A stretch of DNA of 64,000 nucleotides, from positions 15,135 to 79,134 of IMG/VR virus record IMGVR_UViG_3300045988_095776; one strand, given 5' to 3'. Below the pieces are notes generated by a model. That model worked only from the letters and a program-made list of their open reading frames with translations, searched no databases and was not told the origin of the DNA. The position numbers were made by a program, and so were the translations under genes. The DNA is from a virus. Positions within the stretch are counted from its first letter, which is position 1. The number at the start of each line of letters is the position of its first letter. Positions 1,635 to 55,634 of this stretch are shown in pieces.

Positions 1635-3190
1635 ATGGCCGATAATACCATAGATACCCTCAATATACAAATAGGCAGTAGCACAACTCAGGCGGTACGG
1701 TCTATTAATAACCTTGTGAAAAAATTAGATACATTAAACACTGCCCTTGGAAATCTTGACATAAGTCGGTTAAATAATTTTTCCAATTCTTTAAAAAGTT
1801 TAGGTAGCGTGAATTTTAAAGCAAATGGATTGAATGCGGCTATAAACGCCATCAATCGTCTTGGTAAATCTGATTTTAGCCAGTTTGATACAGGAAAATT
1901 AGGTGAAATTCTTACTGAGATGCAGAAACTTGATTCTATTCCAGATGTTTCTCCGAGCGTTAGCCGGTTCACGACCGCTATAGCTAAACTTGCCGGTACA
2001 GGACAGTATATCGGCAATGTATCAAAGGAACTTCCGAATCTTGCGACAGGTTTAAATAATGCGTCTACTAAATTAGGCTCTATGAGCGAAGTATCAGCAT
2101 CCACCAATGCTTTTATTACTTCTCTTGGAAAATTAGCTAGTGCAGGAGATAAAACTGGAAAGACTGCAAATCAATTATCAACTCTCGCGCAAGAGGTTTT
2201 GAAGTTTTTTGACGTAATGAAAAGCGCACCAGATATCAGTTCGAGCACAATAAGAATGACAGAGGCATTGGCTGTACTTGCTTCGTCTGGAAGTAAAGTC
2301 GGAAGAGCTACAAGCAGTGTTTCAAGCTCACTCAATAATTTGTCGTCTGTTGGCTCTAAAGTCAGTTCCGTAATGCATGGTGTTGCTAATGCGTTCCAGG
2401 CTTTTGCTTCAAAAACAATATCTCTTGGGGCAAAAGTAGTATCAGCCATAGCCGGAATAGGCAATGCTTCGTCCGAAACAGGTGAAAAAATAAGAAAACT
2501 GTCAAATCCGTTAAGCTCATTGACAAATAAGTTGAGTGCTTTATATGCAAAAGGATTTTTAGTAAAACGGGCCCTTGAAGTTTTATCATCGCCTGTAGAA
2601 TCTGCGATGAATTACGTAGAGACTTTGAATTATTTCAACTCTGCATTTAATCAAGTTGCAGAAGGAATCGACACAGACGAATGGAAGAAGAGCGGTATTA
2701 AATCCGCAGAAGCATATGCCAATTCATTTCAAGAGAGAGCAAAACAACTTTCTCAGAAATTGACAGGATTTGAAATTTCCGATACTGGGGAACTTACTAG
2801 AACAAATACTGCAAGCCTTGGACTTGACCCTGAAAAGGCCATGCAGTATCAGGCAACATTCGCACAGATGTCATCATCTATGGGCGATACCTCCGAGACT
2901 GCATTGAAGTTGTCAAATGCTTTGACAATGATTGGTTCTGACCTTGCATCTGTAAGGAACATGGATTTTGAAGATGTATGGGAAGACATGGCATCCGGAT
3001 TGACTGGCATGAGCCGTACAATGGACAAGTATGGCATCAATATCCGTAATGCCAATATGCAACAGGAATTATACAATCTGGGAATCAACACCAGCATATC
3101 AAATTTATCTCAGGCAGATAAAACGATCTTACGTACAATTATTTTGCTGAATAATTCTAAATATGCATGGGGTGATTTGGCTAATACGAT
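1635..3190 (+). CDS. tape measure protein, exon 1
   Basis: Long helical Ala/Ser/Leu-rich ORF after the chaperones. It ends inside the motif YAWGDLANTINQ, which continues at 3514. The unspliced frame stops at TGA 3207-3209. Confidence 0.8.
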
Positions 3191-3513
3191 TAACCAGTCA
3201 GCGGCGTGATAAATGCATAGCTGTTGATTTAGTCGCCTATATCGAAACCGACAAGTAGGATATGGGTTATAAGTGATGAAATAAGCTGGAAAGCCGTTTG
3301 CAACGGTAATCAGAGAGTGAAGGCTATGGGCAAAAACATAGTCAACCGCAACGCGTAGGAAGTGAACCTGTCGCTGAGATGCTACAGAATATAATCTTCC
3401 CAAGAGGCATCACTATCGGTCGGTACGGGTGCAGAACCCGTGGTAAAAAGGTACGCTGGACTGCATTATAATGATGCAGAAGTAAGGATAAAAAGCCTTA
3501 CGATAACAATTCG
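3191..3513 (+). ncRNA. putative ORF-less group I self-splicing intron in the tape measure gene
   Basis: - The 5' exon ends in U3190, which can pair with G3232 in a 7-bp P1 (3187-3193 with 3229-3235).
- 3223-3230 is complementary to 3' exon 3514-3521 (P10).
- The last intron nucleotide is G3513.
- Several stable hairpins are present.
- Exon ligation restores the reading frame. Confidence 0.65.
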
Positions 3514-6500
3514 AAATCAGCCAGCAAACCAGATTCGTATGCTGCAATCCAATTTTGCATCTCTTGGTAGAACAATAGGCTCCTTGTTCATTCCTATACT
3601 GCGAACAGTTCTTCCGTATATCAATGCAATAGTCATTGCACTTCAAAGAATGTTTGCTTATATTGCAAAATTGCTTGGAATCAAACTGTCAAACTTTGTA
3701 TCATCTACTGGCGGTATTTCTGTAGATACAAGTAACATTGCGGATGATATGGATAATGCCAGTGATTCTATTGATACTGCAAATAAGAATGCAAAAAAAC
3801 TCGAAAAAACATTGTCAGTTCTTTCATTTGATGAACTGAATCAGCTTAATGACAATTCTGATTCTGGTAGTACAAGTAATCCTTCTTCCGGTTCTGGAAA
3901 TGGTGGATTAGGACATATAGGAGCGCTTGATGCTGCATTAGATGATGCTTTGTCTGCATATCAAAAAGCATGGGATGAAGCTTTTAAAAAGATGTCCAAC
4001 AGGGCAAATAAAATGGCAGATGCCATTGTAAATGCCTTTAAGAGAAAAGACTGGAAAGGTCTTGGAAAAATCATGGCTGATGGCATCAACTGGGGTATGC
4101 AAAAACTCTATGATGCTATTAACTGGAACAAAGTAGGCCCTTACATCACTAAATTCACCAGTGCATTCACCCAGACTTTCAACAGCCTTGTTGATAATAT
4201 CAACTGGAATTTGATGGGACGCACTGTTGGCGCTGGATTAAATACTATTGTCAATATGGCAAATCAGCTTCTGGAAGGAACAGACTTCAAAAACCTTGGA
4301 AAGAAATTTGCTGAAGGCGTCACAGGATTTATTCGCGAAGTTGAATGGACTAATTTTGGCAACATGCTTGGAAACAATTTCATGAAAGCATGGGATGTGT
4401 TTACAGGATTTGTAGAAAATCTTCCGTATAACGAAATCGGTCAGGCCGTTGCGAATGGTTTAAATGGTATTTTTGAAAAAGTAGATTTTGGTGAAATCGC
4501 ACATGCGCTTGCAACCGGTTTGAATGGTGCATTTGATTCACTAGCGGCATTTACCAGTAACTTCAATTGGAATGATTTTGTTGATAACATCACAAGTGGC
4601 ATCGTGACATTTATGCAGGAATTTGACTGGAAAGAAAACGGGCAGAAACTTGAAAACTTTATCAATCATCTCTTGACGTCATTGATTGACATTGCAAAAG
4701 GCGTCGATTGGGAATCATTCGGACATAATGTAGGGGTTTTTCTGAGCCAGATAGAATGGGGCAAACATCTTTCTCGGCTTTTGACGGTTGTTGGTGATGT
4801 GCTTGGTGGAATTTGGGAAGGGCTTGGAACAACATCTGCCGGCACGTTTGTACAGGCAATGGCTGTTTTTGCTATTGGTGATAAATTAATGCCACTTGTG
4901 GATACTATCACCAAATTCTTTACAGGCGATACAGTTTTTGGAAATCTTTCTACAGCTGTGCAAAGTATGCTGAATCCCGCAATCACTGAGGCGGTAAAGA
5001 CAACTATTCCAGCACTTGGAACTTCTTTAGGAAGCCTTGTTGCAACAGGCGGTGGAATTGCTCTTGCTGTAGGCGGAGCAGTATTACTTACCAAGAAATT
5101 AGCAGGACTTTTTGAGACCATGCAAGGCGGCAATGGAATGACTACGCAATATGGCGGCTATCTGCATGATTACGCAACACAGTTGACTGATGTGGCAAAT
5201 CTTACAAACGATCAATCAGAAGCATTATGGCAGTTGATTGAAAAGGACGAAGAGCTTGGAAAGACCCACGATGAAATGTATTCTGATATGGTTGAAAAGC
5301 TAAAAGAATATGGTGTTTCAGCAGATCAGGCAAAAACAGCTCTTGAAAATTATGGTGCTCAGGCGGGTGTTTCGGCAGATTTTGTTGAGGGTATGACTAA
5401 TAAAATATCGGCACTTGGAGACGGCATGTCAGAAGCAGCATCCAAATTCGACACTTCGAAAATCAGCATTTCTGATTTGAAAGATGAGTTGTATATGCTG
5501 AGCTTGAAATCTGATGAATTTGGCGGTTCGTATAAAACTGCTATGGACGAACTTGACAATGCTAACAATGGTGGAGCAATAACCAATACTAAAGATGCTC
5601 TGGATAAAGTTTACACATCACTCAAAAATGCAGGTGTTCCACTTGATGAACTTGATAAGAAATTACGAGAAGATTTTCCAAATGCAACTGTTGTAACCAA
5701 AACGGCTGTTGAGCAGAATATAGTCGGGGCTCAGGAAACTATTTCGTCATCCGTTGCAAAAGCATCAAAAGATACCAAAACAGCTACAAGCGAAATGACA
5801 AAAAATGCAACTGACGACTTTGCAGAAATTCAAAAGCAAGCTGATACTTATATGGGAAATGTCGCTACCACAACGTCTATGAATTGGGGAAATTCTTCAC
5901 GAGAAGCAACCATAAAGGCCAGAGAGATGAAAGTAGCGGTCAGCACAGAACTTGGTAATATGGACAAATCTGTCAGAAGCCATTTCGAAAGCCAATATAA
6001 CATCGCTTATGTGAAATGGGAAAATATTGGAAGAGACATATCCAATTATATTTCCGGTACGATGAATAGTGATATAGGCAGTGCACTGGATAGCTTTGTT
6101 GATACAATCCGAAATTCTTTCAGTAATATGTATGATATTGGATACAATGCAGCACAAAGTCTTTATAGCGGCATGAAAAATGTTTCTATGCCAACATTAT
6201 CATATCGTATATCAGAATGGAAAACACATAATCTTGGAAACGGTAAAACCAGTCAAACTCCTGTTTACAGTCCTAATTGGTACGCAACAGGTGGAGTATT
6301 TACAAAGGCGTCTGTAATCGGCGTTGGCGAAGCAGGACAGGAAGCTGTTCTCCCACTGACAAACCGTAAGGTAATGAAAAGTATTGCTGATAATATCATG
6401 TCTAGCTATGACGGTAGTGCAGGTCTTTCAAAGGAAGAACTTGCAGCAGCTGTTGAACGCGGCGTGGTTACTGCGATGATGAACAACGGTGGATTTGGTG

Positions 6501-6619
6501 GATCTTCGCCAGAGTACATCATGAACAGCATCAAGGTCAACGAACGTGAGCTGGCACGAATTGTCACAAAAGCACAAAGCAATACAGAATATCGTATGAA
6601 TCCATCACCGGCATATTGA
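3514..6619 (+). CDS. tape measure protein, exon 2
   Basis: Resumes with (I)NQPANQIRMLQSNFASLGRTIGSLFIPILRTVLPYINA, a tape-measure core motif. A transmembrane-like Gly/Ala segment and a long helical region follow. The track start GTG 3440 lies in the intron and has no RBS. Confidence 0.8.
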
Positions 6620-7449
6620 TATAACAATTGTTGTAAATGATATAATGGCGCCCCAAAAAAGTATCGGATTGAATGAATTTCGGCACTGATCGGGGCACAC
6701 TTTTTTATGATTAAAGTTTAAAAAAAGCAGTACAATTTGTACTATTTTATTCTTATTTAAAACAAAAAACAGAAAATAAGAGTATGATTTTTCAAAAAAA
6801 TGGAATAAGCCCTTATTTGGCAAAATAACGCTAAAAATCCAGAACGAGCAGTGCTAAAATGTAAATACACCGAAACTAATTTATGAATAATTTGTAAACT
6901 GTAATTTTCATTGATTTCGAAATAATTAGTTTATTTTGAAAAATAAAATTTTTTAGAAGCAAATATTCTGTCAACAATGCATTTTTGTTTACATAATATC
7001 TCAATGTAACGTTACAATAACGTTACGTGTAACGCGCTGTAACGCAATAGAATAAGAATAAGAGTAAGAATAAGAATATTAATTAATATATATGAGATAT
7101 ATATTAATCGTCGAATAAGAGCTTATTCGCCCCTGCTAAATCACTTGATCTCGTATTTGACTTTTAAAACGATTTTAAGTTTGATTCGATAAAATCCTTG
7201 ATAAAAGGATAAAAATTGATTTTAGGCATAAATTTCGAACGCACAAGGGCATTATAGAACATAAAACATGTTGCCGAATTAATTTTCCGTAGTCTTTCAA
7301 ATTGCTTTACTATTCATACTGAAACATACTTCATGTATGTGATAAAATGAAAAATCATAAAGCGTCTATCAGAGTAAGAACAATAGGCGCTATTTTTATG
7401 CATGTAACGTCCTTTATAGGGCGTTTTTTATTTTTATGAGGTATTTAGC

Positions 7450-7815: not shown

Positions 7816-10800
7816 ATGAGAAATTTATCATCTAGGTGGAAAGAAAAAGTTAAAAATGGAATGGATGTGCATTATCTCAAGTATGCCGATATCACTCTTA
7901 CTGATGGGACTGTATTAAACTTGACGAATGCCGACTTGTGGCAAAATGGAATGACGTTTGAGGATTCTGTATCCGGAGATAGCAGTTTTGATATTGGATC
8001 TGCGATTATTAATGTTTTAACGCTGAGTATTAATAACTTTGAAGGTCAGTATTTCGATTACGATTTTGAGGGAGCAGAAGTCATATGTTACGTTGGATTA
8101 CAGATCGAAGATGAGGACACAAGTGAACTGTTAGATTCAGCCGGAGAACAAATACTGGATTCAACTGGCGATACAATCATAGTTCATAAAAATACGGTTA
8201 TTGAAAAAACACGTATTTGTACAGCAACAGTAGTTGAACAGCCGGAAGACGAAACGGTGACCATAGACCTTACGTGCGAAGATAATATGCGGAAGTTTGA
8301 CCGCAATTATTCCGACAGCAAATTGAAGTATCCGGCGACCAGAGGGCAGATCATTCGTGATGCGTGCGAAGTATGTGGCGTTGCATTACAAACGTATCAT
8401 TTTGATCACGATGATTATATCGTACAGACCAGACCATCAGATGATGCACTGACGTTCCGACAAGTATTACAGTGGGTTGCTCAAATTGGCTGTCAGTGGT
8501 TACGATGTGATGAATATGGCAGACTTTGCGTAAAGTGGTACGATACAGAAAAAGCAGATGCGCAGGAAATTGATACGACTTATAGTTTTACGCCACAACA
8601 CACAGATGTTGTAATTACAGGTATTCAAGTAACTGAATATAGCGATTCTTCCGATGAAGAACCAGAAAGTTATATGGCCGGTACACAGGGATATGTACTG
8701 GCCATTTCTGACAATAAATTGATTCGTAAAGGTGACGGACAAACAGTTGCTTCAATGATCGCCGAAAAATGTGTCGGGATGTCATTTCGACCATTTGAAT
8801 CGGAATGTCCAACAGATGTTGCATTGGAAGCCGGTGATGCAATTACGATTGAAGATCGTAATGGATATTTGTACAGTACTTACCTTACGACTACAACCTT
8901 GCAGCCGGGAGCTGGACAGAATATTGCTTGCAATGCTAAAAGTACTGCTAAAAATAGCAGCACTCGTTACAGTCAAATCACGCAGGTATATGTGACTGCC
9001 CGAAAAATGGTAAAAGTTGAAAAGACAGCCAGAGAAAAAGCTCTTGAAGAATTTGGAAAAAGAATTGATTCAGCCACAGGAGTTTATACCACAGTCCAGA
9101 AACAGGCAGATGGTAGCGACATTTTCTATTTGCACGACAAACCAACTCTGGCAGAATCCAAAGCTATCTGGAAAATGACTTCTGAGGCATGGGGAGTTTC
9201 TACAGATGGTGGACAGACATGGAATGGTGGTATGACTGTTGACGGCGATACTATTGTAAGAATCTTGAATGCGGTCGGAGTGAATGCTGATTGGATTAAT
9301 GCCGGAGCGATTACAGTAAAAGATGCCAATGGAAATATTCTTTTCCAAGTAGATATGGATACCAAAAAAGTTATCATCAGCGGAGATTCCGTAGTTATTG
9401 GAGGAAAAACAGCAAGTAAGGCACTGTCCGATAATTTGCAGGAAAGCAAAGATTATTCTGACGGTAAATTAGCTGATTACGCAAACACAATAGCAGAGTC
9501 GCTGTCTGGTTTACAATCCCAAATAGACGGACAAATAGAATCGTTTTTCTATGATTATGAGCCGTCTTTACAGAATATACCGGCATCTCAATGGACTACA
9601 ACAGAAGAACGAAAAAAACATGAGGGTGATTTATTCTACTGGAAAACGACAGGGTATGCGTATCGCTTTATGCAAGACGGTGCTACGTGGAAGTGGCAGT
9701 TAATCCAAGACAATGATATTTCTAAGGCACTTGCAACAGCAGAAAAAGCAAAGGATACAGCGGATGGAAAACGAAGAACATTTGTGGTTCAACCATCTCC
9801 TCCATACGACATTGGCGATTTATGGTCACAAGAAGGTGGAGATATTCTGACTTGTGTGGTTTCGAGATCACAGGGCAGTGTATATGTATCATCAGACTGG
9901 CGGAAATTAAATAAATACACTGATGATACTACTGCAAATAAAGCCCTTGAAGCAGCATCATTAGCCAAAAACATGACCTTACAGCTTTCCAACGACATGC
10001 AGACAATCGCATCCGATGCAGATGGCAACATTACGACATTTCCTACAGTCGCAACAGCGGCAACCGTCATGTATGGAACACAGGACATCACGGATGATTG
10101 TAGTTTTACAATTACAAAATCTGCAAGCGTAACTGGCTCTTGGAATGATGCGACACATGTTTACAATGTTACAGGACTGACTTCCGATAATGGCTGGGTA
10201 GACATCAAGGCAACGTACCTGGTCAATCTGGCAATAACAAAAAGATTCACAATTTCTAAACAGAAACAAGGTAAGCAAGGCATACAAGGCGTTGGAAAAG
10301 ACGGAAAAACTACTTACCTGCATATCAGATATGCGCCAGTACAGAATCCTACTGCTAGTCAGATGACTACTGTGCCAGACAATAATACAGTATATATCGG
10401 CACATACAGTGATTTTAACGGAGTTCCTAGCACCAATCCATCTGCTTATACATGGGCGAAATTCAAGGGCGACCAGGGCGTTCAAGGCCCGCAGGGCGAG
10501 CAAGGCGAAAGAGGAATTCAAGGTCTGCAAGGAGAAAAAGGAGATCCTGGCGAGCGTGGCCTGCAAGGAATACAGGGCGAAAAGGGTGAACAGGGTGTAC
10601 CGGGTGTAGGAATTGATGGAAAGACAAGTTACCTGCATATTGCTTACGCTAATTCCGCTGATGGTAAAACGGACTTTTCAATTTCGGACGCGTCAGGCAA
10701 AACATACATCGGTCAATACACGGACTTTGAAGTGAATGACAGCACTGACCCAACGAAATACACATGGTCATTGATTAAGGGCATGGACGGAAAAGATGGC

Positions 10801-20463: not shown

Positions 20464-20739
20464 GTGAAAACACCTAAAATTGAAATCCGCCAGGTGGACG
20501 GCGAAAAAGGAATCTTCACAGAAATCCTTGTGGACGGTCATAAACTTGAGGGAGTAAGAAGCTTCGAACTGAAGCAGGAGGTTGGAAACTCAATACCGAT
20601 ACTTTCCGTTGATTTGAACGCTTTAGATTTATCAACAGATTTAAAGCTGTTACAGGTGAACCAGAAAGGTATCGGAGAAATCGAAAGCATTAAATTCAAG
20701 GGACAGGAAATGCCAGTTGAGTTTGGCACAAAAGAATAG
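20464..20739 (+). CDS. hypothetical protein
   Basis: GTG start after AGGAGGTG. Confidence 0.45.
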   Translation: MKTPKIEIRQVDGEKGIFTEILVDGHKLEGVRSFELKQEVGNSIPILSVDLNALDLSTDLKLLQVNQKGIGEIESIKFKGQEMPVEFGTKE

Positions 20740-20767
20740 GCTCCCATATTTCAGAGAGCCGTGAGGA

Positions 20768-20959
20768 TTACTTACTGAGATTTTGCAGAATTGAACAATC
20801 GCTGGCACGATTACAACAACCTGTAAAACCGGCATATTTACATTTTAATCTTCCGTTAATAGATTTTGGACTCTTATCTTCTAAAGAAGAAACGGAAATT
20901 TGAGTAAATTCGACAAAATAATCCTTGTTCTGTTTTACACAAAAACCAGAATACACCAT
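20768..20959 (-). CDS. small Cys-rich protein on the opposite strand (moron-like)
   Basis: 63 aa with a strong minus-strand RBS (GGAAGGAGGTG). Hairpin terminator at 20743-20764. Confidence 0.5.
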   Translation of the reverse strand: MVYSGFCVKQNKDYFVEFTQISVSSLEDKSPKSINGRLKCKYAGFTGCCNRASDCSILQNLSK

Positions 20960-21295
20960 TAAACAAACACCTCCTTCCCATAAGGAAAGTATACCACATA
21001 AAAATGGAGGTAACCAAAATTAAAAACTTCATATATGAATTATTTTTCAAGAAAAGATATTCGGTAATTGACATAGTGAGCATTTGCGTTGGAATTGTTA
21101 TCGGAATCCATATTTTCGATAGTCTTGTTTAAAAAAATGTTTAGGGATGGTTTCACAGGATTGATGAAAACCATCAATATGCGGTAATAATTGCAAAATT
21201 TTATCTTTTTCATTTTAATCGGCATGGCGGTGCCTGTAAGGACATTATAAGGAGATGCAGAATAAAACTCAATATCATATCGGAGGGACATAAAA

Positions 21296-21469
21296 ATGGC
21301 AAAATCATTAATCCTGTCAGCTCTGATCGGCGGTATGTCACCGTACCTGCCGTTCTGGAGATTTGACAGTGCATCACAGCCGGTTGCAGTAGCAATCGCA
21401 ATATTCGCATTATCATTCGTGGTTATTTACCCGGATGAAATTAAAAGAATCGGAGGAAAAGAAAGATGA
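21296..21469 (+). CDS. small membrane protein (57 aa)
   Basis: GGAGGGAC RBS and two hydrophobic segments. Stop overlaps the next ATG. Confidence 0.4.
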   Translation: MAKSLILSALIGGMSPYLPFWRFDSASQPVAVAIAIFALSFVVIYPDEIKRIGGKER

Positions 21470-21738
21470 TTGAGACAAAAATGGGGGAAATCACACTTAA
21501 AGGCAGTAAAGCAGAATTAATAGCTGACTTAGCTGTTATCGTTCGTGGAATCAAAGAAACCATTATGGAAGATGGCAAAAAAACAGAGGAATCTGTGAAG
21601 CAGGAGATTGACGAAGCGGTCAAAATCGGGCTGATGAACGAAGAAGAATTTAAAACTATTCAAAAAGAAAAAATCAAAGAAGTTGTAAAAACATTATTTG
21701 GCGAATTACTTGGAGGGCTTTTCGATGAAGATAAATGA
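21466..21738 (+). CDS. hypothetical protein
   Basis: 90 aa, translationally coupled. Confidence 0.5.
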   Translation: MIETKMGEITLKGSKAELIADLAVIVRGIKETIMEDGKKTEESVKQEIDEAVKIGLMNEEEFKTIQKEKIKEVVKTLFGELLGGLFDEDK

Positions 21739-22021
21739 TTTTGATAAGACCGTAGATGAGTTGTATCAGTTGTGCCGGAGAGTTCAGAAAGAAACCGGCA
21801 GAACGGTAGCATTTCATTTTGCAAACTACAAGATCGGATGCAGCTTGCACATCAACATATATAAGAAAGAATCCTTAAGAGAATTTGATATGTACAGCAT
21901 TGCAGAGGGCGGTTATCAGCAGGAAGAGAATGTAAAGAAAGTAACTGACCATTTAAACAAAATTTTGATGGACAACAAATGTCCGTATTGTGAGGGAGAT
22001 TGCAATGGAGAAAGAAAATAA
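21725..22021 (+). CDS. hypothetical protein
   Basis: ATG 21725 is preferred over the track TTG 21698. C-terminal CPYCEGDC motif. Confidence 0.5.
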   Translation: MKINDFDKTVDELYQLCRRVQKETGRTVAFHFANYKIGCSLHINIYKKESLREFDMYSIAEGGYQQEENVKKVTDHLNKILMDNKCPYCEGDCNGERK

Positions 22022-22178
22022 GATGGATTTCAGAGCAGAGACCGTAGCCGAAGAGTATGCAGAGCTGGTAGGCAGATTAAAGGCATTTGAAGCGTATCTC
22101 AGAACAGAGGAAGGCGCCTTAGTTGAGAAGAAAGTGTGCTTCGCAATGCTGGGCCTCTGCACCAAAGAAAGCGAATAA
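22005..22178 (+). CDS. hypothetical protein
   Basis: ATG 7 nt after GAGGGAG. Confidence 0.4.
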   Translation: MEKENKMDFRAETVAEEYAELVGRLKAFEAYLRTEEGALVEKKVCFAMLGLCTKESE

Positions 22179-22309
22179 AAGTTGGCTCCACAGGTACCGA
22201 CATACCACATGGAGCCACGTATCTAACTTAATTTGGCTAAGTTAAATACAGGGCTAGTATAACACACCTTCCTGTATTTATCAATAAATAATTTAGGAGG
22301 GCATTTTTT

Positions 22310-22504
22310 ATGTCAAAAACACACACATCCAACGAACAGAAACCACTTGCAAGCGAGATTATTTGTGATCTGGAAGCAGAAAACGCAAAACTCGAAGCAA
22401 GAAACAAGAAACTCAGTAACATTGTTTTAAAGCAGGCAGCAGTTCTTGTGGAGACATTATTGCTGTTGAATGAAGAAGGTGATTTAGGAAATGAAAATTC
22501 GTGA
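22310..22504 (+). CDS. hypothetical coiled-coil protein
   Basis: 64 aa with an AGGAGG RBS. Confidence 0.45.
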   Translation: MSKTHTSNEQKPLASEIICDLEAENAKLEARNKKLSNIVLKQAAVLVETLLLLNEEGDLGNENS

Positions 22505-23108
22505 CGAAAACCAGGTGCTTTTATCTGGTGATATCCCGGCGGGATTCGTATTCTCACATGAAGAATACGGCGGAACCAAGATGTACGAGGGAAGAATGAC
22601 AATATTCAGAAAGAATGCATCCTATGACATTCTTCCAATTATTGTACCAGAATACATGATTTCAAGAGAAACAGAGTTGATTGCTAGTGTATATGGTGAA
22701 ATGCGAAGTCGTACAGTCCGGGAAGATGGTAAAAAAAGCCTTGCGGCGTATGTAAGAGCAATGAATATTCAGTATCTTGAAAGACTAGAAGAACACGACG
22801 CAAACGAAGTTTATCTGACCGGTTACCTGATTAAAAAGCCGACAATAAAGATGATTGGCACAAACAACGACAGGAAGCTGGCAAGAATACTTCTGGCAGT
22901 AAACAGAAAGAAGAAAGCCGGATATACCAGATCAGACGCAATCAGTTGTTTATGCTGGGAGGAAAACGCAGATGCCGTAGAAAATCTGAAAAAGGGAACA
23001 AAAATCAAACTCCGTGGAAGATTCCAAAGCCGTGAACTGTGGTCTGATCAGAGTCAATCATGGGTAACAGTGTTGGAGGTATCAGTAAAAAGATTGGAGA
23101 TTTTGTAA
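22491..23108 (+). CDS. OB-fold ssDNA-binding-like protein
   Basis: Pattern LTGYLIKKP...LAVNRK...ISCLCWEENA...KGTKIKLRGRFQSRE resembles an SSB OB fold. Sits in the recombination module. Confidence 0.5.
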   Translation: MKIRDENQVLLSGDIPAGFVFSHEEYGGTKMYEGRMTIFRKNASYDILPIIVPEYMISRETELIASVYGEMRSRTVREDGKKSLAAYVRAMNIQYLERLEEHDANEVYLTGYLIKKPTIKMIGTNNDRKLARILLAVNRKKKAGYTRSDAISCLCWEENADAVENLKKGTKIKLRGRFQSRELWSDQSQSWVTVLEVSVKRLEIL

Positions 23109-23109
23109 T

Positions 23110-25137
23110 ATGAAGAAAATCGAAGTAAGAGAAATTAGATTGACCGATTTTAAAGGCCAGTCAGAAAAGAAAATAGAGTTCGGACACAGAACAGTCGTTT
23201 CCGGTAAGAACGGATGCGGAAAAACCACACTGGCAGACGCTTTTATGTGGGTGTTCTGTGACAAGGACTACAGCTTAAAAAGTAACCCGGATATCAGACC
23301 GGATGATGGTAGAGAATGTCTCCCAAGAGTTGACATTGACCTTTTGATTGACGGAAAACCAGTAAGCGTTTCTAAGTACCAGAAACGCACAGAAAGCAAG
23401 CCAAAGGACGGAAAACCGGGCAAGGTTGCATTATCCAACAAGTACGAAATCAACGGCGTTCCGAAAGCTGAAAGAGATTTTAAAGCCGATTTGAAAGAAC
23501 GCGGATTTGATTTTGATAATTTCCTGAGGCTGTCTCACATGGAAATCTTCACAGACTTGAAAGATGCAGATGCCAGAAAGATTCTGTTTTCCATGTCAGA
23601 CGGTGCCGGGAAATCAGATTTAGAGATTGCCAAGACAGTTCCAGATTGTGCCGAGTTAGTACCACTTCTGGAAACCTACAAAGCAGACGAAATTAAGGCC
23701 ATGAACAGTGCAACACTGAAAAAGGCAGAGGAACAGTTGAAAGCCATTCCAAACCAGATTATCGGTATGGAGCAGGCGAAAGTCGATGCTGATACCGCCG
23801 AATTGGAATTGCAGAAGAATGCCTTGCAGGAACAGATTTCAGACCTCGAAAAGCAGATTGCGCAGGCAGGGAACGAGAAAGCTGGAGAGATTAAAGCGGA
23901 ACTGGCAGGGTTAAGAACCAAACTGTTAGAGACGGAATCAAAGGCTAAAGCGAACTTGTTAGAGCAGAAATCATCGGTTTGCAATAAAGTTAGCAGTTTT
24001 GAATTAGACAGGAATATCAAAACATCAGAGTTGAACAGAAAGACTTCTACATTGGAAAGCCTGAGAGCGCAGAAAAAAGATCTTCTTGAAAAATTACAGA
24101 ACGCCAGAACACAGTATCCCAAAATCAAAGACACAGAATGGGACAACACAGTTCTGGAAAGCATTAAATCCGAGGCATTCAAGGACGCAGATACCATTTG
24201 CCCGACTTGTGGTCATAGTCTTCCACCAGAGCAGATTGAGCAGTTAAAGAGCAGATTTGAACAGAAGAAGCAGGAAAGAATCAATCAGCAGTTAAAAGCC
24301 AAGGAAGAATGGGAACAGGACAAGAAACGCAAACTTGATGAAGTTATTCAGGTTGGAAACAAAGCGTCTGCCGATATGAAAGAAGCGCATAAGCAAGAAG
24401 AAACCCTCACATCTGAGATTTCCAAACTGACAGATGAATTAGAGCAGATCAAAACTTCTCTGGATGCAGAAAACAAAAATTTGGAATCCATACCGAAAGA
24501 GCCAGATTTCTCAGAAAACGCCGAATATCAGCAAATTCTTGTATCAATCAAAGAGAAAGAGCAGGAACTTAATTCTCTGGACGATGGCGAAGAAGCAAAG
24601 AAACAGCTTTCAGAGCAGTTATCCGGCAAGAAACAGGAATTGGAAGCAGTTAATCAGAAAATCGGAGAAGCCAACAACAACGTCCGAATTGACGAGCAGA
24701 TTGCGGAACTGGAAGCCAGCAGGACGGAATATTCTCAGAAGAAAGCTGATGCACAGATGATTCTGGATGAACTGAAATCACTGAGTATGGCAAAAAATAC
24801 AGCCCTTGAAGATACGGTGAACCAGTATTTTGACGGTGTTAAGGTGAAACTGTTCGATACGCAGAAAAACGGCGAAGTCGTAGATGCTTGCATCTGGTAC
24901 GTGCAGGACAAGGATGGTAACTGGAAGAAATTAATCGGGAATGCCAATACAGCCCTGATGATGAAAGGCAAAATTGCCATCATGTACGGCTTACAGAAGT
25001 TTTACGGCGTGAGTTATCCAATATTCGTAGACTGCGCAGCAGAACTGGATAACATCAGTCTGGCAGGAATTAAGGCAGATGCGCAGTTAATTTTCTTGAA
25101 AGTTGCTGAATGGGATATGAAGGTAGCGGAGATTTGA
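23110..25137 (+). CDS. SMC/SbcC/RecN-like AAA ATPase with long coiled coil
   Basis: Walker A GKNGCGKTT, a Zn-hook-like CPTCGH in a coiled-coil middle, and a C-terminal signature region. Confidence 0.8.
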   Translation: MKKIEVREIRLTDFKGQSEKKIEFGHRTVVSGKNGCGKTTLADAFMWVFCDKDYSLKSNPDIRPDDGRECLPRVDIDLLIDGKPVSVSKYQKRTESKPKDGKPGKVALSNKYEINGVPKAERDFKADLKERGFDFDNFLRLSHMEIFTDLKDADARKILFSMSDGAGKSDLEIAKTVPDCAELVPLLETYKADEIKAMNSATLKKAEEQLKAIPNQIIGMEQAKVDADTAELELQKNALQEQISDLEKQIAQAGNEKAGEIKAELAGLRTKLLETESKAKANLLEQKSSVCNKVSSFELDRNIKTSELNRKTSTLESLRAQKKDLLEKLQNARTQYPKIKDTEWDNTVLESIKSEAFKDADTICPTCGHSLPPEQIEQLKSRFEQKKQERINQQLKAKEEWEQDKKRKLDEVIQVGNKASADMKEAHKQEETLTSEISKLTDELEQIKTSLDAENKNLESIPKEPDFSENAEYQQILVSIKEKEQELNSLDDGEEAKKQLSEQLSGKKQELEAVNQKIGEANNNVRIDEQIAELEASRTEYSQKKADAQMILDELKSLSMAKNTALEDTVNQYFDGVKVKLFDTQKNGEVVDACIWYVQDKDGNWKKLIGNANTALMMKGKIAIMYGLQKFYGVSYPIFVDCAAELDNISLAGIKADAQLIFLKVAEWDMKVAEI

Positions 25138-25485
25138 GAAAAGTGGAACAGCTAGGAACTTGTTTGGCGACAGCCTAGCTGCTCCACACAAAATATAGAG
25201 CAAACTATATTTGCTAATAGCATAACAGATAATTTTAGCTTAATCAAGCTACAGGTGATTTTGCACCTGCAAAGTGAGGAACGTGTTAACTCACTAGAAC
25301 CTATATAAATTTAATATTTGAGGTTTGACAAGCCTATGAATTTACATGGGTACAAAACTTCCATTCTTTTTTATCGCTAAACTCCGGTGGTTTGAAACCC
25401 TACAAAACAGCACAGGTACGAAACGATGCAATCACGCAAATAGCGTGTTAGCAAATATATAAAAATATAGAAAAGGAGAATTGTT

Positions 25486-26433
25486 ATGGCAAATAAAACA
25501 CAGTTAGCAACAGCAGGAGAACAGCAGGCGGCAATCGTAATCAACAACTCATTCATTGATGGATTGGTCAAGCAGCTTGAAAAAAAATGTGAATATGGTC
25601 TTTCGTTCCCAAAAGACTACAACCTCAGTAATGCACTCATGGGGGCATATCTGACTCTGAAAGAGACAAAAGACAGAAACAATAAGCCAATTCTGGAATC
25701 TTGCACAGCTACAAGCATTGCAAACAGCCTTATGAACATGGCAACGCTCGGACTTTCAGTTCAGAAAAAACAGGGTTATTTCATTGCCTATTCCGGTCAG
25801 TGCCAGTTCCAGAGGTCTTACTTCGGAAACATTACAATCGCCAGAAGATATGGAATGAAAGATATTCATGCTGAGATCATCTACGATGGCGACAAGTTCA
25901 AATATCATATCGAAGATGGAAACAAGGTTCTGAATTCTCATGAACAGGATTTTATGAACATTGACAACGATAAGATTCTTGGGGCATATGCAGTAGTACT
26001 GATGGAAGATGGAACAAAACATCTAGAAGTAATGAACATAAAGCAGATCAAACAGGCTTGGTCACAGGGTTATGGTTACAAGGAAAACGGCAATGGAACA
26101 CATCAGAAATTTACTGACCAGATGGCAAAGAAAACAGTTATCAATCGTGCATTAAAGCAGATTATCAATAGTCATGGTGATATTTTTATTCAGGAAGTCG
26201 AGGAAGCTACAGAAGAAATTCCAAAGCAGGACATTATTGAGCATGAAGTCGCTTATGAAATCGAGCAGAACGCCAATGCAGAAGAATTTATCCCAGATGA
26301 GCCAGTGGCAATCGAAGAGCAGCCGAAACAGCCAACAGTCGCAGAAGTTGTAAAGACTGCCGAGAAAGAACCAGTTCCGGCAGCAGGTAAAGAACCAGAA
26401 ATTCCGGATTTTATGAAGCAGGAGGAGATGTGA
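25486..26433 (+). CDS. recT: RecT-family single-strand annealing protein
   Basis: Core SIANSLMNMATLGLSVQKKQGYFIAYSGQCQFQRSYFG, with an acidic C-terminal tail. Confidence 0.8.
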   Translation: MANKTQLATAGEQQAAIVINNSFIDGLVKQLEKKCEYGLSFPKDYNLSNALMGAYLTLKETKDRNNKPILESCTATSIANSLMNMATLGLSVQKKQGYFIAYSGQCQFQRSYFGNITIARRYGMKDIHAEIIYDGDKFKYHIEDGNKVLNSHEQDFMNIDNDKILGAYAVVLMEDGTKHLEVMNIKQIKQAWSQGYGYKENGNGTHQKFTDQMAKKTVINRALKQIINSHGDIFIQEVEEATEEIPKQDIIEHEVAYEIEQNANAEEFIPDEPVAIEEQPKQPTVAEVVKTAEKEPVPAAGKEPEIPDFMKQEEM

Positions 26434-26434
26434 T

Positions 26435-27040
26435 ATGAACAATAAAGAAATTTTACAGAAAGCAAAGGAACTGGTTGAACTTCTGGAACAACAGGAAGAA
26501 ACCGGAAAGGTTGAGTTGTCAACACTGAAACGAGGAGATGTGTTCCAGACTACAGGGAAACGCAAATACAAAGTGTTGCAGCAGTATGGCGATACAACGA
26601 AAATTATTTCGCTTGATCTGGTGAAAGAAAATGTAGAGTTTGGTGATACCTCAGATTACAAAACATCAAAGGTAAAGAAACTGTGTGACACTGAAATCCT
26701 GAAAGACTTCGAAGAAGAATTCGGGGCAGGAAATATCAAGACACACACAGCAGATATTATCACTGCGGATGGACAGAAAGTCGGAAATGTAAAATGCAAA
26801 ATCCGTCCAATTACGTTTGATGAAGCACGAGAATACACAGATATTACACCGAACAATGATCTGAACGACTGGTATTGGACGTTGTCGCCATGGTCGACAG
26901 AAGAGCACGGATGGAGTAGAAGCTTATCCGTTGTTTCCCCTTCGGGCTGTATCGGCGTCTACATTTACAGCAACGGTTATGGTGTTCGCCCAGTTTGTAT
27001 CTTAAAATCTAATATCTTTGTATCTAAGGTGGAGGAATGA
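26435..27040 (+). CDS. DGR target protein 1 (C-terminal variable region)
   Basis: 201 aa. The C-terminus WTLSPWS...VVSPSGCIGVYIYSNGYGVRPVCI contains VR1. Confidence 0.85.
   Translation: MNNKEILQKAKELVELLEQQEETGKVELSTLKRGDVFQTTGKRKYKVLQQYGDTTKIISLDLVKENVEFGDTSDYKTSKVKKLCDTEILKDFEEEFGAGNIKTHTADIITADGQKVGNVKCKIRPITFDEAREYTDITPNNDLNDWYWTLSPWSTEEHGWSRSLSVVSPSGCIGVYIYSNGYGVRPVCILKSNIFVSKVEE
26928..26992 (+). repeat. DGR variable region VR1
   Basis: 65 nt aligned to the TR. There are 11 mismatches, all at TR adenines. Confidence 0.9.
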
Positions 27041-27642
27041 TTATGAAGAAAAATCTGAAATATTTTGAGGATGAATTATCCAGATTAAGTAAAGAGTCCA
27101 CAGAATTCAAGAAAAAGCACATCGGAAAGCCGGAAATCGGAAAAGCTATTAAGCTTGCTGGCATGGAATGGCTGATTCTGGATAATACAGAAAAAGGATA
27201 TTTTGCCATTTTGAATGGATTTGATGGAAAAGAAAGAGCATTTGATTCAGATTCAAATAACTGGATTTCAAGTAAACTGAGAAATGAGTTAAATACTCGT
27301 TTTCTTAAAAAAATTACTGACGAGTTTGGAGAAGATGCAGTTATTGAGTTTGATCGAGATTTGCTTTCTTTGGACGGTCAGACAGAATATGGACATTGTA
27401 AAGATAAGATTTCGATTTTGACGATGGACGAATACCGAAAATACAGAAAATTCCTTCCAAATATGGGTAAATGGTGGTGGTTGCTTACTCCATGGAGTAC
27501 ACCAGCAAATGATTACAGTAAAACACTTACCGTTGTTTCCCCTTCGGGCTATGTCAACCGCAACTTTTGCAGCAGCGGAAGTGGTGTTCGCCCAGTTTGT
27601 ATCTTTTCTTCTTCAATCTTTGAATCGGGGAATGATGATTGA
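27037..27642 (+). CDS. DGR target protein 2 (paralog, C-terminal variable region)
   Basis: 201 aa. The C-terminus WLLTPWS...VVSPSGYVNRNFCSSGSGVRPVCI contains VR2. Confidence 0.85.
   Translation: MIMKKNLKYFEDELSRLSKESTEFKKKHIGKPEIGKAIKLAGMEWLILDNTEKGYFAILNGFDGKERAFDSDSNNWISSKLRNELNTRFLKKITDEFGEDAVIEFDRDLLSLDGQTEYGHCKDKISILTMDEYRKYRKFLPNMGKWWWLLTPWSTPANDYSKTLTVVSPSGYVNRNFCSSGSGVRPVCIFSSSIFESGNDD
27530..27594 (+). repeat. DGR variable region VR2
   Basis: 65 nt aligned to the TR. There are 10 mismatches, all at TR adenines. Confidence 0.9.
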
Positions 27643-28013
27643 TGGCAAATGAAGATTTAAAGGTAATAACAAAGGCCAAGCAGCTTGCAAAGCATACATT
27701 AATAGTTACGAGCAATGCCAGACGATACCCGAAAAAATATAGGTTTTCACTTGTAGATAAAATGCAAAATAAAGCATTGGAAATTTATGAGTCACTATTT
27801 GAAGCCAACCGAACTGATCTGAAAGATTATAAAGGAGAACGATTAGAACTTCAAACAAAAGCCATTACTCATTGTGATGAGTTGATGTACTTTATAGAAC
27901 TTTCATATGAATTGGGAATTATCAATTCCGGTGGAATGGAAGCATGGTCGCAAATGGTAAAAGATATAAAGTATATGACTATTTCATGGAGAACAAAAGA
28001 CAGAAAAAGATAA
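27642..28013 (+). CDS. avd: Avd-like accessory variability determinant (four-helix-bundle family)
   Basis: About 123 aa, basic and helical (AKHTLIVTSNARRYPKKYRFSLVDKMQNKALEIYE). Located between the targets and the TR/RT. Confidence 0.75.
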   Translation: MANEDLKVITKAKQLAKHTLIVTSNARRYPKKYRFSLVDKMQNKALEIYESLFEANRTDLKDYKGERLELQTKAITHCDELMYFIELSYELGIINSGGMEAWSQMVKDIKYMTISWRTKDRKR

Positions 28014-28039
28014 TTTTCACAGGTTATGCACTGCGAATA

Positions 28040-28104
28040 CCGTTGTTTCCCCTTCGGGCTATATCAACAACAACAATTACAACAACGAAAATGGTGTTCG
28101 CCCA
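28040..28104 (+). repeat. DGR template repeat (TR)
   Basis: Non-coding copy of the VRs between avd and the RT. The core is adenine-rich with AAC/AAT codons and would read GYINNNNYNNENGVRP. Confidence 0.9.
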
Positions 28105-28208
28105 ACATGGATCACATGCAGACAGAGTAAGCGTAAAGCTGAAATCAGAAAAGATACAAGCAAATGCATAACCTTTCCGCAATGGACAAACATAAAGGAA
28201 CAAAATAA

Positions 28209-29228
28209 ATGGATAAAGAAATTGTTGCAAATTTTGAGAATTTATATCGTTCTTACAAAAAGGTTAAGAGCGGTAAAAAATTTAATTCAGGTACTGCAAG
28301 ATTTTCTAATTTGTCTCTTGAAGGCATTCATCTCTTGAAGGAACAATTAGAAAGTCAAACGTATACCATAAATCCGTATAATAAATTTCAAATTCATGAG
28401 CCAAAAGAGCGAACGATAGAATCATGTGCATTTAAGGACAAAGTAGTGCAGAGATGCTTTTCTGATTACATTCTGACGCCGAATCTTGAAAATATCCTGA
28501 TTAAATGGAATACTGCCGGGCAGCAAGGAAAAGGGCAACATATGGCAATGGACGGGTTAAGAAATCAAATGTTGGATGTCTATAAAAGAAATGGAATGAA
28601 TAGTTGGATTGTAAAATGTGATATTCACAAATACTTTTATTGCATAGACCATGAAATCATGAAAGATGTTTTGGATTATTACTTTGATGATGATTTTACA
28701 GTCTGGTTGAACCATTTGTTTATCGATAGTACAGATAATCCGGGACTTCCATTAGGGAATCAGGTAAATCAGAAATACGCTCTTTTGTTGTTACATTCAT
28801 TGGATCAAATGATAACGATTGAATTTGGAAATCCATATTACGGACGATACAACGATGATTTTTATGTGATTTGTAAAACGAAAGAAGATGCCAGAGAAAT
28901 TCTCGAAGCAATCCGAATGATGATTGAAAGTCTTAGACTGGAATTAAACCCTAAATCACAAATTGTACCATTTCGCATGGGCTTGTGTTACCTGGGCTTT
29001 CATCATTACGTAACTGATGAAGGAAAATACATCAGAAAATTGCGTGGTGATAAGAAAAGAAAAACACAGAGAAAAATCCGAAGATGGGTACGGTCAGTGA
29101 ATGACGGGAAGATGTCGATAGAAAAATTCCATGAAAAATACGGAGCATGCAAGAATCATATGCTTCATGGAAATTGCACCAAACTATGTCATAGTATTGA
29201 TTTAGAAATTGAAAGGAGAATGAAATGA
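28209..29228 (+). CDS. DGR-type reverse transcriptase
   Basis: RT motifs: HEPKERTIESCAFKDKVVQ, GLPLGNQVNQ, and the catalytic RYNDDF (Asn where Met is usual). Confidence 0.85.
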   Translation: MDKEIVANFENLYRSYKKVKSGKKFNSGTARFSNLSLEGIHLLKEQLESQTYTINPYNKFQIHEPKERTIESCAFKDKVVQRCFSDYILTPNLENILIKWNTAGQQGKGQHMAMDGLRNQMLDVYKRNGMNSWIVKCDIHKYFYCIDHEIMKDVLDYYFDDDFTVWLNHLFIDSTDNPGLPLGNQVNQKYALLLLHSLDQMITIEFGNPYYGRYNDDFYVICKTKEDAREILEAIRMMIESLRLELNPKSQIVPFRMGLCYLGFHHYVTDEGKYIRKLRGDKKRKTQRKIRRWVRSVNDGKMSIEKFHEKYGACKNHMLHGNCTKLCHSIDLEIERRMK

Positions 29229-54005: not shown

Positions 54006-54081
54006 TGGGGGTTGGCGAAGCGGATTAACGCATCGGTCTTTGACGCCGACATTTTCATCAGTTCAAATCTGATACCCCCAG
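54006..54081 (+). tRNA. tRNA-Gln (anticodon TTG)
   Basis: Cloverleaf by hand:
- Acceptor TGGGGGT/ACCCCCA (U1-A72), with G73.
- Anticodon arm TCGGT-CTTTGAC-GCCGA.
- T arm ATCAG-TTCAAAT-CTGAT.
- Unusual 7-nt variable loop. Confidence 0.7.
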
Positions 54082-54316
54082 TAACATTCACCTGTATTCG
54101 CTGGTTCGAATCCAGCTAGCCCAGCTGACTGTATCTTGTGCATGGTATAGTTCCTCTGAAATACCATCTATCCCATCAGGGGATGAATAAAGGGGCTTCA
54201 AACGTCCCGGATGGTTTCCACATTTTGTGGAGCAGCGGACCCTTTGTTGCGACTGCGAGGGCAAGAATCGCAACAGCAGAGGAAGTTACTCTTGAACTGC
54301 AATAACCCTCTGCTTA

Positions 54317-54389
54317 GGAAACTTAGTTCAGTTGGTAGAACGGTCGGCTCATAACCGACAAGTCACAGGTTCAAGTCCTGTAGTTTCCA
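54317..54389 (+). tRNA. tRNA-Met or tRNA-Ile2 (anticodon CAT)
   Basis: Perfect cloverleaf: GGAAACT TA GTTC AGTTGGTA GAAC G GTCGG CTCATAA CCGAC AAGTC ACAGG TTCAAGT CCTGT AGTTTCC A. Confidence 0.85.
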
Positions 54390-54940
54390 TTTCTTCCATA
54401 TGATGTCTATCCGTTTTATGGACAGAAAAAACTGTTGAATGAGTGTATGTGGATTATTTTCATGAAAGGTGTGTAACGGCACAGCCTGTTCGATGAAGAT
54501 AATTCCCCGTTCGGCACAGTCTCCGAGTTAAATTGTCGTCAATAAGCGCGCATTGAGGGCAGGAAGTTTTCAAGAGACATATAAAAGGTTTTGTTGTTAT
54601 ACACAAAGACATTAATATCCAAATCCGAAAACAACTCCGTGGGGCATACCACGGTTACCAAAAAGCCGTCAGGTTGGCAAAAATACGATAGTCCAAGTTA
54701 TGAAAAATTGCCTAGTGGAAAGCATAACACGAAAAAATCATTGCTAACCCGGAACAATCTCCGGGTTCTGGGGGAATAATACCATAAGGGGCAGAGGGCT
54801 GATTAACAGTACCATGGCGGTTCAACTCCGCATTCTCCCATTATCCAATCTGTAAATATTGGATATGAGGAAGCTGTCCGAGATGTAAGAAACAGTCGGC
54901 TTGTGGATTGCCGGTACAAATACGCTAAAAATCCACACAT
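54390..54940 (+). ncRNA. ORF-free helix-rich 551-nt spacer: candidate large structured RNA
   Basis: No credible ORF. Many local hairpins plus a 9-bp long-range pairing (54469-54477 with 54597-54605). Bounded by tRNAs. Confidence 0.35.
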
Positions 54941-55012
54941 GGCAGGATAGAGAAGTGGAATCTCGCAAGGCTCATAACCTTGAGATCGGCGGTTCAAATC
55001 CGCCTCCTGCTA
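54941..55012 (+). tRNA. tRNA-Met or tRNA-Ile2 (anticodon CAT), second copy with a different sequence
   Basis: GGCAGGA TA GAGA AGTGGAA TCTC G CAAGG CTCATAA CCTTG AGATC GGCGG TTCAAAT CCGCC TCCTGCT A, with G1-U72. Confidence 0.8.
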
Positions 55013-55549
55013 TTTTCAAACATGGTTAACTCAGTGCAGATAGATTTTTCAGTCTAGCTGAGATGCAGAGTTATATGAGATAGAGTAGTTCGGGATACTG
55101 GGCTATCAACTATCTTTCTGGCAGGAGCGATTCTGCCAGAGGAGGAAGAAACTTCCAATACACCTTGTAGTGTATCATCATAAAGAGACCAAAAGCAGAA
55201 TCCTTGTGGTCAGTGTATAATAGACGCTTGCGGTGCAAGAATAATCCGTTGATGTGAGGGGTGTGAGAGACCACGGACTAGGCGGAAATCTCATTAAGCT
55301 GATTTGCCTTGAACCTGAGAAATCGGGGTATAACACAAGAGATTCGTTAGAGTAGCGGTATGGCATTTCATTCATAAGGGAAAACTTCTGAAAGAACCGT
55401 GAAATTTGTGGGTGACATTCCCATTTGTGCTTGACCGCGGTAAGAAGCTCAGGGTCGCTCCCGAAGGCTCAGACTTATCGTCACAGTGGCTGAATATGGT
55501 TGCAAGTATGATGGATAAGGGGAAACCCTAATCATGTTTGAATAGTTGA
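55013..55549 (+). ncRNA. ORF-free helix-rich 537-nt spacer: candidate large structured RNA
   Basis: No credible ORF. Hairpins at 55119-55139 and 55143-55155. Long-range GTGGTC/GACCAC pairing (55205-55210 with 55269-55274). Bounded by tRNAs. Confidence 0.35.
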
Positions 55550-55634
55550 GCTGACGTACCGAAATGGTTATAACGGCGTAGTCTTGAAAACTAATGTGGT
55601 GAAAGCCCTGTAGGTTCGAATCCTACCGTCAGCG
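55550..55634 (+). tRNA. tRNA-Ser (anticodon TGA), class II
   Basis: - Acceptor GCTGACG/CGTCAGC.
- 3-bp D stem.
- Anticodon loop CTTGAAA.
- 15-nt variable arm.
- T arm GTAGG-TTCGAAT-CCTAC. Confidence 0.7.

Follow-up and report, generated by a model that had tools for sequence, protein, structure and literature searches.

Group I introns are known from the tape measure (three sites), tail tube and terminase genes of Bacillus cereus-group prophages, where they belong to subgroups IA1 and IA2 (Tourasse and Kolsto 2008, PMC2504315). These introns target conserved sites, have frequently lost their endonuclease gene and show adaptation of their P1 helix (PMC2504315), and introns have also been described in tail and capsid genes of cluster J mycobacteriophages and of phage Twort (PMC3706429). 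Here we describe a 323-nucleotide (nt) insert at positions 3191-3513 of a 64,000-nt stretch of viral DNA (IMG/VR record IMGVR_UViG_3300045988_095776, positions 15,135 to 79,134; hereafter the window), which interrupts one tape measure gene of a siphovirus-like gut phage. We conclude, with a probability of roughly 0.88, that the insert is a functional group I intron of the IA type without an open reading frame (ORF); its catalysis, its exact register and its splicing in vivo are what we infer. It is thus a further case of the tape measure gene introns already described. All features lie on the + strand unless stated otherwise.

The B. cereus-group prophage introns resemble the window intron in having a tape measure gene as host and highly conserved stretches as insertion points. 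As in the intron family to which the window intron belongs (described below), many of their copies lack an endonuclease gene and their P1 is adapted to different sites; as at the window site, different introns share one site, and presence or absence varies among related phages. The window host is, however, an uncultured gut phage lineage with a different insertion site.

One tape measure gene and its intron-less alleles

Exon 1 of the tape measure gene (1635..3190; ORF list, translation and PHROGs) consists of 518 codons plus 2 nt and ends ...GCU AAU ACG AU, while exon 2 (3514..6619; translation, alignment and PHROGs) begins A AAU CAG CCA and has its stop codon at 6617-6619. The exon-1 ORF taken without splicing (1635..3209) ends ...YAWGDLANTINQSAA at a TGA (3207-3209) followed directly by a TAA (3210-3212), an in-frame pair of stops within the intron (3207..3212), and reading the unspliced RNA gives a 524-amino-acid (aa) fragment ending ...INQSAA, with the stop 17 nt into the intron. 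The continuation, with PANQIRMLQSNFASLGRTIGSLFIPIL, resumes at 3521 in a different frame from exon 1. Inspection of the sequence directly upstream of 3521 revealed neither a Shine-Dalgarno-like sequence nor a start codon, and the sole start that the ORF finder gives to the downstream frame is a GTG at 3440, within the insert. When 3190 is joined to 3514 the exons read ...ACG AT/A AAT CAG CCA... (here and below a slash marks the junction), which translates to ANTINQPANQIRML and yields one ORF of 1,553 aa with a single terminal stop. The ORFs 1635-3209 and 3440/3521-6619 should therefore be annotated together as one tape measure gene.

PHROGs tape measure families cover the spliced protein in single stretches across the junction residue 519 (phrog_1535, E = 1.5e-61, residues 363-1539; phrog_167 also matches), while a Pfam search of the junction region gave nothing useful. 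A tblastn search with 360 residues centred on the junction matched 108 phage records, many annotated as tape measure proteins, and most of the matches among those listed span the junction in one piece. The alignment with four uninterrupted homologues, from Dulem virus 39, Eggerthella phage EL753P1, Clostridium phage Maintenon and a gut contig, is gap-free at the junction, which sits in the most conserved motif of the region, A-x-G-D-L-A-x-T-I-x-Q-P-A-N; its QPAN is invariant in that alignment.

Searching IMG/VR with 167 junction-spanning residues returned 80 relatives. All 167 residues matched in one colinear stretch, with no intron, in 49 of them; in the other 31 the match breaks at residue 101-104 and a member of the intron family lies exactly there. 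Over the 60 nt to either side of the junction, three of the intron-less alleles (L128-L130) differ from the window exons solely at 3'-exon positions +1 and +4. These two differences, both of them synonymous, would be compatible with a short co-conversion or with selection for the P10 pairing discussed below. Such alleles may be regarded as the nearest thing to a complementary DNA that is obtainable from sequence data alone. Altogether, these data bear out what the sequence-only reading had proposed for the gene, namely that it is interrupted, that its first ORF stops at TGA 3207, that the continuation at 3521 lies in another frame and has no ribosome-binding site or start codon of its own, and that joining 3190 to 3514 restores the frame; the alignment with uninterrupted homologous genes, which that reading had put forward as a check, agrees, as do the 49 colinear alleles.

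Five related contigs (L187, L189, L196, L204 and L205) hold a different intron of about 1.25 kb at the same tape measure site (L187:1804-3053 in the first of them). It contains an ORF of 315 aa with GIY-YIG and NUMOD1 domains, a homing endonuclease, and it shares with the window intron the P1 guide GUCG and a related 3' domain. The ORF list shows no homing endonuclease ORF, the mark of a mobile intron, in the window intron (3191-3513). Because it has no endonuclease gene, the window intron would now be passively inherited, and the GIY-YIG intron at the same site in related phages accounts for the colonisation of that site. Among close relatives the empty site occurs together with an intron that bears an endonuclease gene and one that has no ORF, which is the picture expected of a homing cycle. 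This three-state polymorphism is modestly new, and with three stages of the cycle side by side in near-identical phages it offers a convenient natural system.

We also considered that the insert stays in the RNA, in which case the tape measure would be made as two polypeptides from a split gene, or the gene would be broken and the phage defective. Annotators do call two genes in Staphylococcus phage 6ec and similarly in Clostridium phage CB452P1. Against this, the downstream frame lacks a start codon or ribosome-binding site before 3521, and the break falls inside an invariant motif. Moreover, the 31 intron-bearing contigs carry 15 distinct intron sequences in which both frames are open and the helices are kept by compensatory changes, which points to selection on the RNA. 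Several of these 31 contigs are phage genomes of 70-80 kb. We therefore regard retention of the insert in the RNA as very improbable. Stop-codon reassignment was rejected on account of the TGA, the TAA and further in-frame stops, and an intein was rejected since the insert has in-frame stops.

With excision of the intron as the preferred reading, an unspliced transcript meets a stop 17 nt into the intron and gives only the 524-aa fragment, so that the full-length protein, and hence the tails, would depend on splicing. The sequence-only reading had already proposed that tail assembly depends on splicing here; the argument is sound but not new, tape measure introns having been described in 2008 (PMC2504315). 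Conceivably, slow or conditional splicing controls when, or how much, tape measure protein is made, and the ORF-less copy is retained for that reason.

Group I architecture of the insert

The insert contains no + strand ORF, and the two minus-strand ORFs that overlap it (3110..3403 and 3413..3646) are mechanical calls and unsupported. Folding of the region beats all 100 shuffles (z = -3.2), and the minimum free energy (MFE) fold already holds P1, P2, P3, P4/P5, P6a, P7.1, P8a, P9 and P9.1. The boundaries 3191 and 3513 are supported by the intron-less alleles, by covariation, and by the family hidden Markov model (HMM) and covariance model, which cover exactly this span. We assessed the helices by recounting pairing after shifting the helix partners (slid control). 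In the core of 30 homologues, 87.6% of cells are paired, as compared with 35-41.5% in the slid controls, and 51 of the 66 pairs have changed on both sides. Eight full-length relatives from four host-gene contexts gave 97.8% paired cells versus 30-46% when slid, with compensatory changes in 56 of 92 pairs.

At the 5' end, P1 pairs 3187-3193 (CGAU/UAA) with the guide 3229-3235 (UUAGUCG); it is present in the sequence and in the MFE fold, comprises 7 base pairs (bp) and places U3190•G3232 at the 5' splice site. A 3-nt bulge (3194-3196) separates it from its extension P1a (3197-3205 with 3220-3228; 7 of 9 pairs compensatory, 98.5% paired), which closes a conserved loop at 3206-3219 (GUGAUAAAUGCAUA). 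P2 follows (3236-3243 with 3259-3266; 6 of 8 pairs compensatory, 96.9% paired), and within its loop L2 (3244-3258) the segment 3247-3252 (ACCGAC) pairs at long range with 3419-3424 (GUCGGU) in the internal loop of P8. This pairing is kept in 100% of cells across the eight relatives, with compensatory changes in five of its six pairs. A tertiary contact between L2 and P8 is common in group I introns, and the six-base pairing occupies its place; a base-paired form of the contact is modestly new.

P3 pairs 3273-3278 (GUGAUG) with 3408-3413 (CAUCAC) and crosses P7, forming a pseudoknot; all six of its pairs are compensatory and it is 100% paired in 30 sequences. An A-rich J3/4 leads from P3 to P4 (3286-3289 with 3310-3313), which encloses an A-rich J4/5, P5 (3293-3298 with 3302-3307) and J5/4, both helices resting on covariation. 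P6 (3317-3319 with 3344-3346) and P6a (3322-3328 with 3337-3343) have compensatory changes in 8 of 10 pairs. P7 pairs 3353-3357 (GCGUA) with 3452-3456 (UACGC) and is 100% paired, with invariant G-C and C-G pairs and a middle pair divided evenly between A-U (15 sequences) and G-C (15 sequences); it is preceded by a conserved J6/7 GCAAC and followed by UG. Between P7 and P3' stands one arm, formed by P7.1 (3358-3362 with 3396-3400) and P7.1a (3368-3374 with 3381-3387), which is 100% paired and has compensatory changes in four of its five outer pairs (30 sequences). P8 (3414-3417 with 3442-3445) and P8a (3425-3429 with 3437-3441) are likewise supported by covariation, and J8/7, AAAAGG (3446..3451), is nearly invariant across the family alignments. 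The 3' domain consists of P9 (3461-3466 with 3474-3479) and P9.1 (3482-3487 with 3496-3501; conserved loop AUAAAAAG), both supported by covariation in the full-length relatives and found in many variants in the family, and of P9.0, in which 3459-3460 (GA) pairs with 3511-3512 (UC) directly before the terminal G. P9.0 covaries between GA/UC and AA/UU, and its column pair 297/357 is A-U in 14 and G-C in 11 sequences.

Three features in combination make the insert group I by architecture: its P3/P7 pseudoknot, a U•G pair at the 5' splice site and a terminal G positioned by P9.0. Its arm between P7 and P3' is characteristic of subgroup IA. One long arm at that place is the form described for IA1, and the intron may be of subgroup IA1 or IA2. 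The group I-like character suggested by the sequence-only reading thus holds for all defining helices, compensated in both the 30 core homologues and the eight full-length relatives. The same reading had reported that the interior has no ORF and contains four hairpins, and each of these falls on a helix: 3294-3306 is P5 (3293-3307), 3425-3441 is P8a, 3460-3479 is P9 (3461-3479) and 3482-3501 is P9.1.

The order of elements, P1, P2, P3, P4-P6, P7, arm, P3', P8, J8/7, P7', P9 hairpins, short tail and terminal G, is the same in the td intron of phage T4, an IA2 intron for which self-splicing was shown experimentally. By eye, td also shares with the window intron the AAC before P7, the UG after P7', a P9 stem CUGCAU/AUGCAG and a ...AACAUAAUG tail. 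It differs in having two hairpins (P7.1 and P7.2) in the position of the single long arm of the window intron, and in carrying I-TevI in P6 where the window intron has no ORF. The IA2 introns of Twort orf142 (tail tube), for which a crystal structure is known, also interrupt a phage tail gene, and introns 2 and 3 are small and ORF-less; their J6/7-P7 (GCAAC-GACUA) and P7'-P9.0 (UAGUC-UGAAC) align with GCAAC-GCGUA and UACGC-UGAAC of the family.

Another kind of element, namely a group II intron, a miniature transposon excised as DNA, or a translational bypass like that of T4 gene 60, would fit the imperfect 7-nt repeat at the borders, which resembles a target-site duplication, and the fact that Rfam recognises no group I core. 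For group II, there is no Rfam group II match and the insert is only 323 nt; typical group II introns measure about 600 nt or more. No terminal inverted repeats were seen, the pseudoknotted fold, with its covariation, belongs to group I, and the border repeat is predicted by group I mechanics through a shared guide segment. A bypass would have to cross 323 nt with many stop codons, several times the known 50-nt bypass. We consider all these alternatives extremely improbable, and translational bypass, group II intron and transposon were rejected.

Splice register and comparison with known group I models

The U•G of P1 is retained at the inferred 5' splice site in six of the eight full-length relatives and in L187 (L014, L079, L102, L059, L096 and L187 are the named cases). 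Family members in a putative major tail protein gene (L043:396-751 and L067:6350-6706) apparently have C opposite A in P1 (GGGC/AG with UUACCC) rather than the canonical U•G, at a junction deduced from the reading frame only (..QSRA/LYQYGID..). At the other end, the terminal G (omega G, 3513) closes the conserved tail GAUAACAAUUCG, as established from the family 3' ends, and where host proteins allow the junction to be deduced, the tail of the family, with a conserved GAUAACA(n)G, has G as its last base. A candidate P10 guide (3223..3230, GUUGAUUU) can pair with 3514-3521 (AAAUCAGC) over 8 bp including one G•U; it overlaps P1/P1a, so that the two pairings are mutually exclusive.

The insert is bounded by an imperfect 7-nt repeat, TAACCAG at 3191-3197 and AAATCAG at 3514-3520. 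An empty site reads ACGAT-TAACCAG-CCAGC (also ...ACGATTAACCAGCCAGC...), where the window has ACGAT-[TAACCAG ... TTCG-AAATCAG]-CCAGC. Eight registers 3190+k/3514+k (k = 0-7) consequently each remove 323 nt and give the same protein. Such a repeat is what group I mechanics would predict, since the first intron bases, in distal P1, and the first 3'-exon bases, in P10, pair with the same guide segment.

Several results weigh against our reading of the insert and of its ends. Owing to the border repeat, comparison of proteins or DNA cannot fix the splice register, and the 8-bp P10 is absent from the orthologous same-site introns L014 and L079. With the Rfam group I model (Intron_gpI, RF00028) the window intron gave no match at E<=10, and 12 further loci of the family gave none at E<=1. 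No match to the family HMM was seen in T4 td, T4 nrdB or Twort, and local alignment of the 3' tails with T4 td is insignificant, 365 of 2,000 shuffles scoring as well. Finally, the family covariance model gives one Twort match (13.8 bits) that is as strong as its matches cited below and lies for the most part in coding DNA (16484-16620), sharing with the intron-1 match only the first 15 nt of the latter.

Concerning the Rfam result, which is the outcome of a check suggested by the sequence-only reading and went against it, the curated gathering threshold of RF00028 is 50 bits, a database criterion and not a defining property of the ribozyme. In controls the model gave 40.3 bits for T4 td, 35.7 bits for T4 nrdB and 63.6-100.9 bits for the Twort orf142 introns. 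As the model is uneven on phage introns, with the T4 controls below 50 bits, the negative is no refutation of the structure; it means that the family is far from the Rfam seed. In agreement with this, phage variants may, according to a 2025 study, go undetected by the models of Rfam and GISSD (PMC11878797). Rfam scans at the gathering threshold and at E<=10 gave no group II match either, the one match being a 15-bit chance match of RAGATH-33. Td, which Rfam sees at 40 bits, and the Twort introns, at 64-101 bits, differ in this from the window intron and its family, which Rfam does not see at all.

A family covariance model of 176 positions scores 167 bits on the window and 75 bits on the Staphylococcus phage 6ec intron. 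Run on T4 with filters off it finds nothing significant (best 7.3 bits), and it matches Twort orf142 introns 2 and 3 in register and weakly (13.1 and 11.5 bits, E about 0.003-0.007), so that the cross-match with Twort amounts to only 11-13 bits. A widespread phage intron family that escapes the Rfam group I model would mean that Rfam-based surveys undercount phage introns; the alignments and the family covariance model could seed a new RNA model. The invisibility of the family to Rfam and its breadth are modestly new.

The register 3190/3514, with the junction ACGAU/AAAUCAGCC, is probably the right one, given the P1 U•G, P9.0 with the terminal G, the conserved 3' tail of the family and the junction in Bacillus phage KLEB27-3. 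A group I-type intron spliced at one of the other registers that the border repeat allows, such as 3197/3521, would agree with L128-L130, whose ACGAT TAACCAG CCAGC equals window 3186-3197 followed by 3521 onwards; that join reproduces the intron-less ...AUU AAC CAG/CCA..., and all eight registers encode I-N-Q. Register 3197/3521 would, however, put G instead of U at the 5' splice site and break the P1 U•G. Besides, P9.0 covariation and the conserved tail set the terminal G at 3513, and KLEB27-3 has the same AAATCAG behind its terminal G, where it is demonstrably part of the exon and encodes K-S of the Walker A motif GGQSNVG/KSG. We consider joining in a shifted register very improbable. The splice sites picked by the sequence-only reading are those selected by group I rules and by the family alignment: U3190 and G3232 wobble within a 7-bp P1 (3187-3193 with 3229-3235), and the intron ends in G3513, placed by the covarying P9.0. 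The 8-bp complement of 3514-3521 that it proposed as P10 exists at 3223-3230, but is not conserved in L014 and L079.

With 3190/3514 as the junction, established group I intron chemistry predicts the following steps. The late transcript would fold so that exon 3187-3190 pairs with guide 3232-3235, with U3190•G3232 at the cleavage site, and a free (exogenous) guanosine bound in P7 would attack after U3190. P9.0 and G3513 would then dock, G3513 replacing the guanosine in the P7 site, perhaps with help from the 8-bp P10 (3223-3230/3514-3521). The exons would finally be ligated to ...ACG AU/A AAU CAG CCA..., giving a messenger RNA for the 1,553-aa tape measure protein.

An intron family in other phages and the surroundings of the gene

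A blastn search with the region matched unannotated gaps in unrelated phages, in a helicase, a tail module and a terminase-like ORF. In Bacillus phage vB_BauM_KLEB27-3 (L001, OM634661, ~93114-93785) a member of about 670 nt, holding a short ORF remnant, splits the replicative helicase at Walker A GGQSNVG/KSG, and the locus is annotated as two genes and a gap. Clostridium phage CB452P1 has a member in its tail module, within a split tail-region gene; a gut contig has one in a terminase-like ORF (read by eye) just before a Walker B-like motif; and another member splits a major tail protein after MAKLSTLG. Staphylococcus phage 6ec (L127, NC_024355, record 20536-28605) carries a member (75 bits, HMM E = 8e-25) of the same RNA family as the window intron and in the same class of host gene. 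It differs from the window intron in having an HNH endonuclease ORF and in lying in a different phage at a different site. The 6ec region is annotated as 'minor tail protein', 'HNH endonuclease' and 'tape measure protein', with the intron ending at the start of the third gene, and the three genes are probably one intron-containing tape measure gene.

The 17-mer AAAAGGTAYGCTGRACT, from J8/7-P7', occurs in more than 118 IMG/VR contigs, of which the family HMM confirms about 100; the window has a single copy of the family. Isolate phages with members include those of Staphylococcus, Clostridioides, Listeria, Exiguobacterium, Aeromonas, Klebsiella and Yersinia and a crAss-like phage. Scanning bacterial genomes with the 17-mer gave 14 real members among the 120 matches listed, the rest being chance; the members belong to Oceanobacillus, Neobacillus, Virgibacillus, Robertmurraya and Lachnospiraceae. 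We put forward as a tentative and rather doubtful proposal that the window intron belongs to a large, coherent phage group I lineage that is absent from current RNA libraries and whose members standard annotation misses systematically. Such a lineage would be distinguished by a long bulged P1-P1a-P1b hairpin, by base pairing between L2 and P8 where a tetraloop-receptor contact is usual, and by the single long P7.1 arm. Were this true, many phage tail, terminase and helicase genes that databases present as 'split' would be intron-containing genes; the deposited annotations in need of joining are those of the 6ec tape measure, the KLEB27-3 helicase and the CB452P1 tail-region gene.

Besides, two or three family members lie within 1-6 kb of each other in L055 (1431-2200), L003 (2980-4140), L036, L084 and L212, so that a single gene or adjacent genes in these contigs have several introns.

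Upstream of the tape measure gene, the window has a 173-aa ORF (218-739) and a tail chaperone gene (765-1184). PHROGs gave no match for the 173-aa ORF, whose N-terminus is similar to the major tail protein that is interrupted in L102. Downstream, an AT-rich stretch of 830 nt (6620-7449), without a + strand ORF of at least 40 aa, separates the tape measure gene from the next tail gene (7450). The motif GTAACG recurs in it at ~7000-7045, short tandem repeats resembling AAGAATAAGA lie at ~7050-7075, and there are hairpins with U-runs behind them; a gap of this size is unusual for a tail module. The ORF at 7816-12729 (1,637 aa) has collagen-like G-x-x repeats and repeated 'GKT.YLHIAYANSADGKTDFS' modules, and its product is probably a tail fibre or host-recognition protein. 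Elsewhere in the window, a ROOL RNA (RF03087, 377 bits) was found at 55006-55549 on the + strand, within 54006-55634, flanked by four tRNA genes on the same strand (54006-54081, 54317-54389, 54941-55012 and 55550-55634).

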